Assembly (NCBI GenBank): GCA_039028615.1
Contig: JBCCHT010000002.1
Location: 160,001 to 224,000 of the forward strand
DNA from: Myxococcota bacterium
Lineage (GTDB): Bacteria; Myxococcota_A; Polyangia; Nannocystales; Nannocystaceae
Reading direction: 5' to 3'
Length of the DNA stretch: 64,000 bases
The notes beneath the pieces are model-generated. The model had not been told where the DNA came from and made no database searches. It saw nothing but the letters and a program-made list of their open reading frames with translations. This document shows positions 9,200-13,058 of the stretch, piece after piece (positions within the stretch are counted from its first letter, which is position 1; every line of letters begins with the position of its first letter). A program made the translations under genes and the position numbers.

Positions 9200-10051
9200 T
9201 CAAGCGGGTGCGGCGTCCGAGCCTCGCTCGATGAAGAACCCCGCAGCGATCCATCGCCCGCGCACCTCGTCGTGCCACGACCGCTCGACCTCGGCCAGCG
9301 AGCGCTGCTGCTCCTGGGCCACCCACTGCAGCGCCTCGCCCACCGTCCCGTGGTCTCGCAGCGTGGACAAGAACACGTGGTGGACGCGATTGAGGGGCAC
9401 GGTCGAGGTCATGAAGTCCTTGCGGACGATGGCCACATGCGAGGTCCGGGCGGAGGGAAACGAAGGGTCCTGCTCGGCGCGAACCTGGTGGTAGTACCAG
9501 GCCACCGGGTAGCGAAAGGTCTCGAGGACGAATGCGGGCTGGAGTACGAGCCGCTCGTCGGGGGTGTCCACGGTCGGCCATGGCTTGCCCTCGTGACCGG
9601 GCGCGTCGAAGAGCCGGAACTGCTCGAACTCGTAGCGCGCCAGGTCGACCATGAAGTCGATCCAGTCCTCGCGCTGGGCGGGCGGCAAGTCACGGTCGGG
9701 GCGCGCGTGGTCGAGGTACCCGGAAAAGCGCCGACCCAGCTCGTGCAAGGTGTAGCTGCTGGGCGGGTGGGCCCACAGGTACTCGCGGGCGAAGTCGTGG
9801 AAGAGCTCTTCGCCCAGGGCATGGCACAGCGCGGGAAACTGCTCGGCCAGGCACTTGCACAGCCGCAGGATGTACGCGCGCTGGTAGATGCCGAGCCGAG
9901 CCCGGGCATCGAGCTTCGGCGACGCCAGCAGCCGCCGCTCGACCTGCTCGTCATCGACCCGGCCCGGAAACACGAGCGACTCGAAGAGCCAGCGCTGCGT
10001 CCCCGCGAGGCCGTCGTCGCGCTCGGGAGCGGGTGAAGCCGAGCTCATCAT
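9200..10051 (-). CDS. DUF2063-type MNIO partner protein (HvfC/BufC-like precursor-recognition chaperone)
   Basis: RLGIYQRAYILRL..LAEQFPAL..ALGEELF..FAREYL.AHPPSSYTL.ELG..F, DLARYE. ATG 10051 overlaps the MNIO stop (ATGA). Confidence 0.88.
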   Translation of the reverse strand: MMSSASPAPERDDGLAGTQRWLFESLVFPGRVDDEQVERRLLASPKLDARARLGIYQRAYILRLCKCLAEQFPALCHALGEELFHDFAREYLWAHPPSSYTLHELGRRFSGYLDHARPDRDLPPAQREDWIDFMVDLARYEFEQFRLFDAPGHEGKPWPTVDTPDERLVLQPAFVLETFRYPVAWYYHQVRAEQDPSFPSARTSHVAIVRKDFMTSTVPLNRVHHVFLSTLRDHGTVGEALQWVAQEQQRSLAEVERSWHDEVRGRWIAAGFFIERGSDAAPA

Positions 10052-11013
10052 ACGCCCTCGAGCCGGGTTCGTGACATCACCTGCGGCACCATGAAGTCGA
10101 CGGGGGTGGAGATGCACGAGCTGGCGTCGAGCTCGGCGCCGCGCAGATGCTCGCACTCGAGTCCGCCGTGCATGAAGTCGCGCGCCCGCAGCACCTCTTG
10201 GTGGACGCGATCGAACGCGGGCACGTCACCGTCCCACTCGAGCAGGGTCGACGCCCCGCCCGTTCGTTGCCACGCCACGCGAAACAGCTCCCAGACCGCG
10301 TCACAGACCGGCTGATCGTGGGTATCGACGAGGTGGTCTCCGCAGTTTTGGTGCCCGGCCAAGTGCAGCTGCACGACCCGCTCGAACGGAAAGGCCTCGA
10401 GGTACGCCAACGGGTCGGCGCCCGCATTGAAGCAGGTGACGTAGACGTTGTTGACGTCGAGCAGGAGCCCGCAGCCCGTGCGCTCGGCCAGCGCCCGCAG
10501 GAAGTCGGGCTCTTCCATGGTGGTGTCGGCGAAGCCGATGTATGTGCTCGGGTTCTCGAGCACCAGCGGTCGGCGCAGCGCCTCTTGCACCAAGGCCACC
10601 CGCCGAGCCACGTGGTCGAGGGTCTCTTCGTTGAGCGGCAGGGGCAGCAAGTCGTGGCTATTGGCGCCCTGCACCCCGGTCCAGCACAGGTGGTCGCTGA
10701 CCCACACGGCACGGATGTCGTCGGCGAGCACCTTGACCTTGCGCAGGTACTCGGGGTCGAGCGGATCGGTGCTGCCGATCGACATCGAGACCCCGTGGAG
10801 CACGACGGGGTAGCGCTCGGCGACCTGCCGAATCACGTGCCCCGGGCGGCCCCCGGAATCCATGAAGTTCTCCGTGATGGCCTCGAACCAATCCACGGCC
10901 GGCCACTTCGACACGATGTGGCCGAAGTGGGTGCTCCGAAGGCCGATGCCCAGCCCCAGCCGCGGCAGCGTGGAGATGGCCGGTGCACCGGGCGACTGTC
11001 CGCCGTCGTTCAG
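10048..11013 (-). CDS. DUF692 multinuclear non-heme iron-dependent oxidative enzyme (MNIO; MbnB/TglH/ChrH/BufB family)
   Basis: GIGLRSTHF, WFEAITENFM, LHGVSMSIGS, VSDHLCW, HDLLPLP, LENPSTY, LLDVNNVYV, QLHLAGH, DTHD, LLEWD. The start is inferred as CTG at 11013, overlapping the upstream TGA. Confidence 0.93.
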   Translation of the reverse strand: MNDGGQSPGAPAISTLPRLGLGIGLRSTHFGHIVSKWPAVDWFEAITENFMDSGGRPGHVIRQVAERYPVVLHGVSMSIGSTDPLDPEYLRKVKVLADDIRAVWVSDHLCWTGVQGANSHDLLPLPLNEETLDHVARRVALVQEALRRPLVLENPSTYIGFADTTMEEPDFLRALAERTGCGLLLDVNNVYVTCFNAGADPLAYLEAFPFERVVQLHLAGHQNCGDHLVDTHDQPVCDAVWELFRVAWQRTGGASTLLEWDGDVPAFDRVHQEVLRARDFMHGGLECEHLRGAELDASSCISTPVDFMVPQVMSRTRLEGV

Positions 11014-13058
11014 GCGCAGCTCCCCGCCCCGCTGAGGCCGCTCGAGCCACAGGCGGTCATGCCTCCCCCTTCGTTCTGGATCCACTCGATGGTGGGCCCG
11101 TCCTTGAACAGATCGGGGTCGTTGGTGGAGCCGGGGATGTTCGGCGGCTCGGCGGGGAGCTTGGGGTCTCGCGCCTTGTGCTTGGCCCAGAACACCTTGC
11201 GAGCCCGGTGCCACACGCTCTTGCCCTGGTTGCCGCCATCGGTGCTGAAGCGCTCGGCGTTGATGGGCGTGGCGCACGAGCCCAGGGAGCGACAATCGTT
11301 GTCCCCCGGGGAGTCTTGCTCTTCGGCCGTGCCGTAGAGGCCACAGCCGCCCTGCCCCCGGCAATCGTTGCGCACGTGGCACTGATGGTCGGTGACGGAG
11401 GGGTTGCCGGCATCGGCCGGGTTCCACTGCAGCGCGGTGGAGCAGTAGCCCATGCCCGCGCAGTCGTTGCTCAGCGTCCGCCCCTGGTTCTTGCAGTCGT
11501 TGAGCCCCATGCACGCGTGACGGCTCGCGCCGCCGGGAATGGTGGCGGGCGGCTGCCGCGGGAACACGGGGGCCCCCGCGAACTTGTCGTCGTCCTTCCA
11601 GTAGTCGCTCACGTCGGGGAGCTGCTTGATCATCGGGATCAGCCAGCTGATGTCGCTGTACCAGGGCTCGTTGCCACACGCGGTCGCGACCGCGTCGGCC
11701 AGCTCGGAGAGGCTCTGGAACGCCCGATCCCGGCTGCCCAGCGACAGGTTCTCGAAGGTCGGCGCCAACGCGACCACCGTCCCCTTCGACGTGGTCTCGA
11801 TGCCGCGCATCGCCTGCAGGAACTTGTCGAGGATCCAGATCATCGACATGTGCAGCGCCCGATTGAAGTAGACTTTCTGGTCTGCCGACGGCACCTTGAA
11901 GATGGTCTCGGTCAGGATCAGCATGTACTGGTACAGGCCGCTGGAGAGGTCGACTACCGACTTGTAGGGCGCCGCGAGATCGGCGGACACCGGGTTGGTG
12001 GGGTACGGCACCACGAACTCGGCGAGCTGTGCGGGCGTGAAGGGGTGCTCGGGGGGCTTGGGCGGCTGGGGCCGCAACGGCAGCGGCTCGCCCTTGCCGT
12101 TCTTCATGCCTTTGGCGTGCCACTCGTAGCCCTCGAGCTCGGACTGCAGCGTCAGGAACTTGTAGTAGTGCGACAGCTCCTGCTTGGAGGGGTCGTCGAC
12201 CTTGGTGTTGTTGAAGCCCTCGCCCTGAAAGTCGATGGTGGCGATGGCCTCGAGCGCCTCTTCGCAGGAGGTGATGGTGGTCAGCTGGAAGCGCCCGGTG
12301 TGGCTGTCCTCGCGACTGGCAAAGTCGGTGACCTGCGCCGCCGAGCCCGGAGCGGAGGCGGGGACCGGCGTCGTCTTGTCGAAGGACGCCGTCGGGTACG
12401 CGGTGTCGATGTTGTTGGGCGAGTAGTTGCCCGGCTGAATCTGCTGATTCTTGGCCCCTTGGAGGAAGTCGGAGTCCTCGATCCACTGGGAGTAGATGAT
12501 GCAGCGAATGTACGAGTAGACCTGGCCGATGGTCTCCCAGTTGGAGCCCTCGGGCGGCGCATCGGCGTTGGCCGGATACTCGATCTCGAGGAAGTTCCAC
12601 AGCTGCTGCTCGGAGAAGGGCGCCAGCGGCAGCGCGAGCGTCTTCGCGTCTGGGCCCAGCTTGGCGTGCCCCGGTAAATTCGTCGGGTAGGGCCCCGGAG
12701 ACAGCAAATAGAGCCGTGGTTGCTGCCCCAGCGAGAACGAGATGTTCGACGACAGGGACATGTGCAGCATCTCTTCGACAGCCACGCTCATGATGAGCGC
12801 TCCCGCCTTGTCGGCGAAGCGAGCGACCGGGCTCTGCGGGAAGCCGGCGTTGGCGGGAGAGCCCGTGATCGTGCGGTTGATCGAGTAGTACGTGTACAGA
12901 TAGATGGGGATGGTCGCGAGCTCGATCTCGACGGCCACCTGCAGGTGTGCCTTCAGCTCCGACAGTGCCCGCTCACGGGTCCACGTGTCGTTGATCGTAT
13001 CGATGAGCTTCTGCTCGGAACGCGAGGGTTTCGGTACACCGTACGGGGTCTTGGCCAT
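11010..13058 (-). CDS. Ferritin-like domain protein (PF12902/VioB-related) fused to a C-terminal Cys-rich bufferin-precursor-like domain
   Basis: GGGAGG RBS 6 nt before ATG 13058. Ferritin-like motifs LQVAVEIELATIPIYL, EEMLH, FLEIEYP, TIGQVY, QGEG, SHYYKF. The last 169 aa carry 11 Cys and 4x NDCxxxG. No signal peptide. Confidence 0.88.
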   Translation of the reverse strand: MAKTPYGVPKPSRSEQKLIDTINDTWTRERALSELKAHLQVAVEIELATIPIYLYTYYSINRTITGSPANAGFPQSPVARFADKAGALIMSVAVEEMLHMSLSSNISFSLGQQPRLYLLSPGPYPTNLPGHAKLGPDAKTLALPLAPFSEQQLWNFLEIEYPANADAPPEGSNWETIGQVYSYIRCIIYSQWIEDSDFLQGAKNQQIQPGNYSPNNIDTAYPTASFDKTTPVPASAPGSAAQVTDFASREDSHTGRFQLTTITSCEEALEAIATIDFQGEGFNNTKVDDPSKQELSHYYKFLTLQSELEGYEWHAKGMKNGKGEPLPLRPQPPKPPEHPFTPAQLAEFVVPYPTNPVSADLAAPYKSVVDLSSGLYQYMLILTETIFKVPSADQKVYFNRALHMSMIWILDKFLQAMRGIETTSKGTVVALAPTFENLSLGSRDRAFQSLSELADAVATACGNEPWYSDISWLIPMIKQLPDVSDYWKDDDKFAGAPVFPRQPPATIPGGASRHACMGLNDCKNQGRTLSNDCAGMGYCSTALQWNPADAGNPSVTDHQCHVRNDCRGQGGCGLYGTAEEQDSPGDNDCRSLGSCATPINAERFSTDGGNQGKSVWHRARKVFWAKHKARDPKLPAEPPNIPGSTNDPDLFKDGPTIEWIQNEGGGMTACGSSGLSGAGSCA

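Follow-up and report, generated by a model that had tools for sequence, protein, structure and literature searches.

The 64,000 nt window analysed here (positions 160,001-224,000 of the forward strand of contig JBCCHT010000002.1, assembly GCA_039028615.1, from a member of the Nannocystaceae, Myxococcota) carries on its minus strand a gene cluster in which a ferritin-like protein is joined to a Cys-rich domain, the probable substrate of an MNIO (DUF692) enzyme, and is followed by that MNIO and its DUF2063 partner. Comparison with other genomes indicates that the constant feature is this four-part cassette and not the fusion, since the fusion is optional among close relatives; as a conserved system the cassette is well supported. 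A first-pass annotation of the window had described three minus-strand genes at 9200-13058, and all are present, as are the EIELATIP, EEMLH, IEYP, QGEG and SHY motifs and the Cys-rich tail that it had read in the 682-residue translation; the profile check that it proposed, with PF12902, PF05114 and PF09836, places all three genes above cut-off. The parts of the cassette, in window coordinates, are as follows.

11010..13058, minus strand: fusion gene of 682 amino acids, ferritin-like with a C-terminal Cys-rich domain of the adjamnio-I type (translation, Pfam)
12144..12944, minus strand: PF12902 ferritin-like domain, residues 39-305 (Pfam, 125.9 bits, cut-off 22.3)
12321..12437, minus strand: insertion loop spanning approximately residues 208-246, which makes up most of the surface where docking is predicted (interface modelled for the split pair of locus L057, mapped to the window)
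11013..11519, minus strand: Cys-rich domain, residues 514-682, probable MNIO substrate (conservation, homology)
11208..11258, minus strand: AERF...SVW segment, residues 601-617, before a W-x-x-A-R helix; predicted dock (L057 interface)
10048..11013, minus strand: MNIO (DUF692) of BufB type (Pfam, NF050167, motifs), with start candidates CTG 11013, CTG 11052 and GTG 11085
9200..10051, minus strand: DUF2063 partner (PME type 1), 283 amino acids, with a weak NGO1945_C match (Pfam)

The linkage of these parts was established in two sets of loci. A genome collection contained 238 relatives, of which the best 80 were taken; two end before the tail, and in all 78 with enough DNA the order is ferritin-like protein, Cys domain and MNIO, with the partner next in 77 and a contig end accounting for the miss. 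The fused form occurs in 25 of these loci, while 51 are clean splits into a ferritin-like gene of 475-655 codons and a Cys-rich gene mostly of 200-250, and two (L001 and L069) seem to contain frameshift errors. A second scan used an alignment of 14 distant fusions and took the best 80 of 312 metagenome loci, some of them near-duplicates, 78 of which have a ferritin match. The 36 that are Cys-tailed have the MNIO next in 35 cases, the exception lying at a contig edge, and all 34 with an unbroken frame are fused; the 42 tail-less loci have no MNIO in any of the 19 with at least 1.2 kb of downstream sequence, the other 23 being too short. A phylum sample gave the same picture, with seven tail-less PF12902 regions (12-15 kb) free of MNIOs and an MNIO at both of those with the Cys domain, so that tail-less PF12902 genes differ from the cassette in having no MNIO neighbour (0/19 and 0/7). 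The survey of PF12902 genes beside DUF692 that the first-pass annotation proposed therefore finds an MNIO next to the tailed ferritins (78/78 close and 35/36 distant loci, the single miss being a contig end), and the common occurrence of ferritin-tail fusions lacking DUF692, to which the annotation had pointed as evidence that would tell against it, was not observed. Its central proposal, that an MNIO acts on a ferritin-tail fusion, holds in so far as the tail is the probable substrate and no export signal is visible, but about two-thirds of the close relatives are split.

The cassette is patchily distributed. Records from the Pseudomonadota, Myxococcota, Cyanobacteriota, Acidobacteriota and Actinomycetota contain it, and yet a full-length homologue was found in only one of five same-genus genomes searched; a close tail is present in none of 399 other genomes (one further was not scored) in a class sample around genome G407 and in one of 400 in an order sample around G815, which show the cassette to be rare in both. 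The fused or split label switches seven to ten times on quick trees, and at least three times if judged by starred branches. At L039:8025-10202 a fused form is nested in split Sphingomonadaceae loci and retains a split-type junction sequence, and it looks like a recent read-through fusion. Thalassospira sp. HJ and Kordiimonas have the fusion as well.

Assignment of the ferritin-like domain to PF12902 follows from a profile score above cut-off together with a ferritin-type four-helix bundle. Its fold matches PDB entry 3HL1 (Z 23.6, root-mean-square deviation 2.7, 265 residues aligned), with Dps and bacterioferritin chains ranking next at Z of about 10, and 3HL1 is also the sole solved relative in a PDB sequence search (E 5e-7). 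The domain is thus alike in sequence and fold to other PF12902 proteins, including CC_0557 (PDB 3HL1) and the C-terminal domain of VioB; the full-length VioB model TIGR04492 gives only 20 bits against a cut-off of 1250, and only over residues 32-186. A protein search returned 673 relatives comparable in length; the top 120 of these (query included) are 49-63% identical to the 682-residue protein over 89-100% of its length. Across these 120 the candidate di-metal ligands E46, E96, H99, E280 and H297, together with E160, E294 and Y53, are invariant, and all but E294 are invariant in 23 distant fusions as well. The ligand roles are assigned from the ferritin pattern E..ExxH..E..ExxH, and the conserved residues would fit a carboxylate-bridged di-metal site. 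An AlphaFold2 model of the fusion has a mean pLDDT of 80.8 and a pTM of 0.88; confidence is high over most of residues 11-490 and low in the Cys core. In other PF12902 proteins (L192:6553-8520 and L193:5779-7743) the domain is fused to C-terminal Fer4_19 and CDGSH Fe-S domains, in a vicinity free of MNIOs.

Nine of the 11 tail Cys residues (C516, C522, C533, C539, C560, C566, C572, C589 and C595) lie in repeats of the N-x-C-x-G-x-G-x-C type, and C670 and C681 follow; among the 120 homologues nine of the 11 are fully conserved and two are conserved in 97-98%, and conservation peaks at residues 514-605 (0.73, versus 0.48-0.70 in the other stretches measured). The 38 stand-alone (split) versions of the domain compared are 49-67% identical to the window tail. 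The label bufferin-like that had been given to it is apt as regards kinship and overstated as regards family, for the tail scores 14 bits with the BufA2 model NF050166, whose cut-off is 60, and 60 of 61 tails match that model weakly, with E values of up to 1. Profile comparison by hhalign gives probabilities of 99.5% to eight exported-type (Tat-like) precursors and of 89% to six canonical Buf2 sequences, and because of these probabilities and the weak BufA2 score the tail is classed as Buf2-related without being a BufA2. It shares the features of the adjamnio-I precursors, namely no signal by a hydropathy window, at least eight Cys and a position directly before an MNIO. In the same simple window test, which is not SignalP, no hydrophobic N-terminus was seen in 120 fused proteins (below 1.8 in all 120), 40 split ferritin-like proteins or 40 split Cys proteins.

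A profile built from 61 tails found 331 representatives, and Pfam assignments for 102 of its best 150 matches yielded many PF12902 fusions, many small proteins with no domain match, some of them with export-type N-termini as judged by eye, and four DoxX fusions. The last are DoxX membrane proteins joined to the same Cys-rich domain (P0206, P0217, P0239 and P0242), and they are not among the fusions named in the available parts of PMC12452194. The ESM Atlas returned no named family for the tail, its best feature score of 0.86 being no more than a lead; a model of the tail alone, at a pLDDT of 50.8, was too low for a fold search, and the viral contigs searched contain no relative.

The association between the ferritin-like protein and signal-less tails is also evident when the search starts from the tail. 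Signal-less Cys proteins found without using ferritin have an adjacent ferritin-like gene in six of six cases (L233, L267-L270 and L291), although two of these coincide with loci from the previous sets and another two are near-identical to each other; the count excludes an unpublished genome, a short locus and the two centre genomes, which had been encountered before. On a Kitasatospora plasmid (L233) the order is Cys protein, MNIO, partner and ferritin, with all four parts retained. Homologues of the export type, in contrast, have no ferritin neighbour in 16 loci within about 12 kb (one contig extends only 6 kb and one start is ambiguous), and none of four tested genomes that contain them has a PF12902 match; close relatives of the MNIO that lack ferritin are preceded by small homologues of the tail that are of exported type. 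Whether or not ferritin is present, the Cys domain is immediately followed by the MNIO wherever there is sequence to show it, except at L273, where there is no MNIO match. Three-gene loci (L255-L266) combine exported-type precursors with 8-12 Cys, often RRxF, with MNIOs of the LLEWD type; these Tat- or Sec-like Buf2-related precursors are the closest relatives of the tail (the hhalign probability of 99.5%) and their MNIOs intermix with those of the cassette in the tree, but they differ from it in having an N-terminal export-type segment (by eye) and no ferritin-like gene nearby.

The MNIO scores 350.9 bits with PF05114 and 351 bits with the BufB model NF050167 (cut-off 310), and the partner 69.1 bits with PF09836 (cut-off 27.2), which is the pairing of a BufB-type MNIO and a DUF2063 partner expected of Buf2. 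All 14 cassette partners tested, including those of three Cluster_I members (see below), are above the DUF2063 cut-off. The MNIO motifs HG, SDH, HD, EN, DVNN, HLAGH, DTH and EWD are all present, and the metal-site motifs are retained in every cassette group, many distant forms having Pro where HLAGH ends in His. The residue that follows E-W-D varies: the window MNIO has LLEWDG, split forms have G, D or others, distant forms mostly A or S, and canonical Buf2 enzymes IERDD at this place. In a first tree 113 cassette MNIOs fell on one side of a branch (SH-aLRT 98) against a thin outgroup of 21 rows, whereas in a second nine of ten added exported-type loci fell among 39 ferritin-linked rows (a group of 48, SH-aLRT 90), so that the ferritin-linked MNIOs failed as a clade of their own; both were quick IQ-TREE searches without bootstrap. 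Because the exported-type MNIOs fall among the ferritin-linked ones, the MNIO group tracks the Cys domain, and ferritin tracks the signal-less forms. The nearest MNIO to that of the window (79%) comes from a split locus. The window genome has eight MNIO matches and one PF12902 match, with canonical BufA2 genes beside two of the other MNIOs, while genomes G401 and G409 have one MNIO each, belonging to the cassette, and no DUF2282 or BufA2 above cut-off (their completeness is not stated). Other MNIO loci have, grouped as listed, lipoprotein-like GCP-repeat precursors (L083, L199 and L204) or EGSCG/EGSCK-repeat precursors (L085, L203 and L206).

Structural modelling predicts that the split ferritin-like and Cys proteins bind one another. 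The complex of the split pair of L057 scored 0.70 and the best of three controls 0.00; of the solved complexes 116 of 157 attain the score mark used, and of the mismatched pairs two of 215. At least 52% of contacts recur between runs, and the partner pLDDT is at least 56. PDB sequence and fold searches found no solved complex of this kind. In the predicted interface the ferritin insertion contacts the ERF...SVW segment and the C-terminus, and most Cys repeats take no part. W616, A619 and R620 are invariant in the 23 distant fusions, and residues 601-660 have pLDDT values of 73-86 per block in the model of the fusion, higher than in that of the tail alone.

No neighbour is constant beyond the four parts when the nearest genes are compared. 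A haem-binding protein of the FMP type (NF040572) is present in 20 of 80 close loci and a DyP peroxidase in 11, with a P450 alongside in the two that were checked; an FAD-dependent gene resembling amino-acid oxidases occurs in 5/80 close and 4/36 distant loci, and a thiamine-pyrophosphate (TPP) gene resembling keto-acid decarboxylases in 3/80 and 2/36. Tail-less control loci, which are shorter, have one DyP gene in 41 and no haem-binding, oxidase or decarboxylase gene. Loosely, these neighbours hint at redox chemistry. At L019:639-4061 the haem-binding and ferritin genes start with an identical 40-residue N-terminal sequence, and another N-terminal extension is shared by FMP haem-binding proteins (L011:6443-7843 and L028:11943-13430) and a few ferritin fusions such as P0079.

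Our explanation, in which we have moderate confidence as a whole, is that the cassette comprises a ferritin-like di-metal protein, a signal-less Cys-rich adjamnio-I domain, an MNIO and a DUF2063 partner, the first two being joined in one polypeptide in the window genome. The MNIO-partner pair would oxidize some of the tail Cys residues in the cytoplasm, the most probable products being 5-thiooxazoles like those of bufferins and other captophorins, and the modified domain, neither exported nor cleaved, would remain docked on the ferritin-like domain through the ERF...SVW segment. The resulting unit would place a soft-metal module, probably for copper, beside a carboxylate-bridged di-metal site, and its most likely role would be in the handling of intracellular metal or peroxide stress. 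The layout would resemble that of rubrerythrin, with the modified Cys domain replacing rubredoxin. By analogy with characterized systems it is likely that the MNIO modifies tail Cys residues; conversion to 5-thiooxazoles is suggested because all characterized MNIO-PME1 systems, as described in PMC13097082 and PMC11626156, make them and because, according to the same sources, the Sec signal is dispensable for modification of BufA1 and BufBC alone suffices. From this we infer metal chelation by the tail. It is possible, if doubtful, that a cytoplasmic PF12902 di-metal oxidoreductase depends on the modified domain, with a thiooxazole metal site built by the MNIO, as its obligate, self-made module for copper or electron transfer; were this true, the MNIO would be a cofactor-maturation enzyme for a protein and not an enzyme of peptide natural products, and stand-alone PF12902 proteins, for which the literature searched reports no function, would gain their first.

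Several observations weigh against this explanation. The Cys core is poorly modelled (pLDDT mostly below 60), so that the models do not place it relative to the metal site; the predicted interface runs through the ERF...SVW segment and not the Cys repeats. The complex was modelled with self-made paired alignments of 40 rows, and public databases contain fused sequences that may inflate its confidence. The window MNIO has Gly after E-W-D where Cys-Lys-type enzymes have Asp and Lys-Cys types Phe, and therefore lacks the Asp of the Cys-Lys specificity position (mapped by inference to FonB 249/250); its chemistry or modified sites may accordingly differ. Adding exported-type loci to the tree breaks up the exclusive clade of ferritin-linked MNIOs, and the close set of loci was ranked on the whole protein, which favours tailed loci and leaves 158 of 238 outside. 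No copper-related gene is recurrent among the neighbours checked, and the window genome has no homologue of the FMP haem-binding protein or of the oxidase.

The ferritin-like protein could instead be a maturation or tailoring factor that provides the MNIO with iron or electrons or performs a second oxidation, the modified domain being the product and the fusion a tether. The split form is after all the commonest in the close loci (51/78), ferritin is found only with signal-less precursors, binding of ferritin to the Cys protein is predicted, and an MNIO of this class requires a reductant and a mixed-valent diiron state according to 10.64898/2026.07.17.739211. We nevertheless consider this unlikely, given that the exported systems with closely related MNIOs manage with no ferritin nearby (0/16) and no PF12902 in the four genomes tested, that BufBC is enough for BufA1, and that the fusion of all 34 unbroken distant tailed loci imposes a 1:1 arrangement unusual for a catalyst. 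Still less probable is an oxidative enzyme acting on small molecules, VioB-like or coupled to an amino-acid oxidase, with the modified tail as built-in cofactor or activator and a place in a metabolic pathway and not in stress. PF12902 does occur in VioB, FAD oxidase-like and TPP decarboxylase-like genes flank both close and distant cassettes, and PF12902 genes adjoin lodA-like oxidases, as reported in PMC4417212 and as seen beside lodA in L190; on the other hand, most cassettes lack these flanking genes, the window genome has no such oxidase, the 20-bit match to TIGR04492 is far under its cut-off, and the same neighbours suit peroxide handling equally.

That the Cys domain binds metal or Fe-S clusters without being modified, with the MNIO acting elsewhere on a small open reading frame (ORF) or on the ferritin domain itself, we regard as very improbable. 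Nine to eleven conserved Cys could hold clusters, and the C-terminal Fer4_19 and CDGSH domains of the PF12902 proteins in L192 and L193 are a precedent lacking any MNIO; against this, known MNIO substrates are homologues of the Cys domain, the MNIO comes straight after it in all loci with sequence except L273, and the two single-MNIO genomes G401 and G409 contain no small precursor of a known family.

In relation to known systems, the explanation that we prefer, of a modified Cys domain retained on a ferritin-like protein, combines catalogued parts in an arrangement that was not found in the literature searched. Adjamnio-I is a group of plausible precursors (cluster I of Fig. 1d in Antoine et al. 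2025, PMC12452194). Its Cluster_I list of 100 accessions includes the stand-alone tail relatives of L025, L049 and L074; by exact look-up three of six split precursors are listed and a fourth has a listed 90% cluster-mate. P0301 and P0327 are also on the list, and L031 (Sphingomonas echinoides, in which the cassette MNIO is the only one) and L057 (Caulobacter ginsengisoli) are not. Adjamnio-I precursors resemble the tail in being signal-less, with at least eight Cys and directly before an MNIO, but are stand-alone proteins of 122-293 residues, whereas the window domain is the C-terminus of a 682-residue ferritin-like protein; the split cassettes have a ferritin-like gene beside an adjamnio-I-type precursor. 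The major adjamnio-I organization has a PME-type 2 partner lacking the DUF2063 signature, while the window partner and all 14 cassette partners tested pass PF09836, though Pfam versions may differ. The cassette is an exception to the correlation of PME-type 1 partners with signal peptides drawn in the same paper. That paper also proposes MNIO action on protein-sized or fused substrates, and names fusions (Buf1-cytochrome c-FGE, MerC-Buf1 and MerC-Buf2) that, as here, place a bufferin-type domain on a larger metal-related protein; those are described as few in number, and the MerC-fused domains are assigned to the periplasm, whereas the fusion in the window is signal-less, widespread and also conserved in a two-gene form.

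The Buf2 bufferins (BufA2-BufB2-BufC2 of Caulobacter vibrioides; Buf_6/12Cys; Cys-Lys captophorins; PMC11626156, PMC13097082) are a related class, sharing with the cassette a BufB-type MNIO, a DUF2063 partner, the order precursor-MNIO-partner and homologous Cys repeats. The cassette differs from them in having no Sec or lipoprotein signal, a precursor domain of about 170 residues and 11 Cys with an extra helical docking part, an NF050166 score of 14 versus 60, Gly and not Asp after E-W/R-D, and an attached ferritin-like protein. While the characterized products of MNIO-DUF2063 pairs in the literature consulted are small exported thiooxazole metallophores, the cassette couples the same pair with a substrate that has no signal and with a ferritin-like protein, and bears on the modification of whole intracellular proteins, on the role of adjamnio-I and on that of PF12902 outside VioB. 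The possible novelty raised in the first-pass annotation is thereby narrowed: the substrate family, the enzyme pair and the idea of protein substrates are already known or catalogued, and what was not found in the literature searched is the ferritin-like partner, the repeated switching between fused and split forms, and the docking predicted by modelling. The word ferritin does not occur in the main text or the two spreadsheets of PMC12452194 (the PDF supplement lies outside the search), the precursor sheet of PMC13097082 has 62 matches to the motif GGCGLYG, with no class given in the 29 rows viewed, and no ferritin motifs, and the literature, mainly open-access, yielded no description of a ferritin-MNIO link.

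The gene junctions bear out only part of what was first proposed. Four-nucleotide overlaps had been reported at both; that between MNIO and partner is a simple ATGA, and that between ferritin and MNIO requires a CTG start at 11013, the closest upstream in-frame GTG being at 11085 and the CTG at 11052 having GGAGG just 5' of it. The MNIO frame is open for 974 codons (10048-12972, minus strand), crossing most of the ferritin gene in another frame, and long open frames occur in this region in several relatives too; this is probably an effect of high GC. The third-position GC content of the three genes is 0.89-0.92, similar to the 0.85-0.90 of the neighbours. A scan for promoters and terminators found no sigma-70-type site and no terminator closing the cassette. 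No DoxX or ECF/anti-sigma gene is present by Pfam in the ten ORFs scanned between 3037 and 15316, as had been noted; the reported absence of a small signal-peptide precursor needs qualification, as one of two flanking genes is lipoprotein-like, although it is not a member of the cassette.

13230-13595, minus strand: lipoprotein-like ORF, 121 amino acids, 3 Cys, no Pfam match, directly upstream of the fusion gene
8245-9165, minus strand: short acyl-CoA dehydrogenase-like gene, 35 nt past the partner stop

The lipoprotein was rejected as the true precursor: the gene occurs throughout the family, in 17 of the 18 genomes searched, and none of the cassette loci searched contains a homologue of it. 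In seven of nine relative loci its homologue lies directly after a TPR gene; in the window an SDR gene and an orphan ORF intervene. The acyl-CoA dehydrogenase-like gene was likewise rejected as a fifth part, with no homologue in the other cassette loci searched. On the opposite strand a 266-residue ORF (13569-14369, plus strand) overlaps the start of the lipoprotein gene and has no Pfam match and no homologue in its own genome or in the fetched loci. Further along the minus strand, an ORF of about 600 codons (6321-8126) matches no Pfam family and is without a paralogue in the genome, and a DUF1552 gene followed by a DUF1592/1588/1595 gene occupies 3034-6143.

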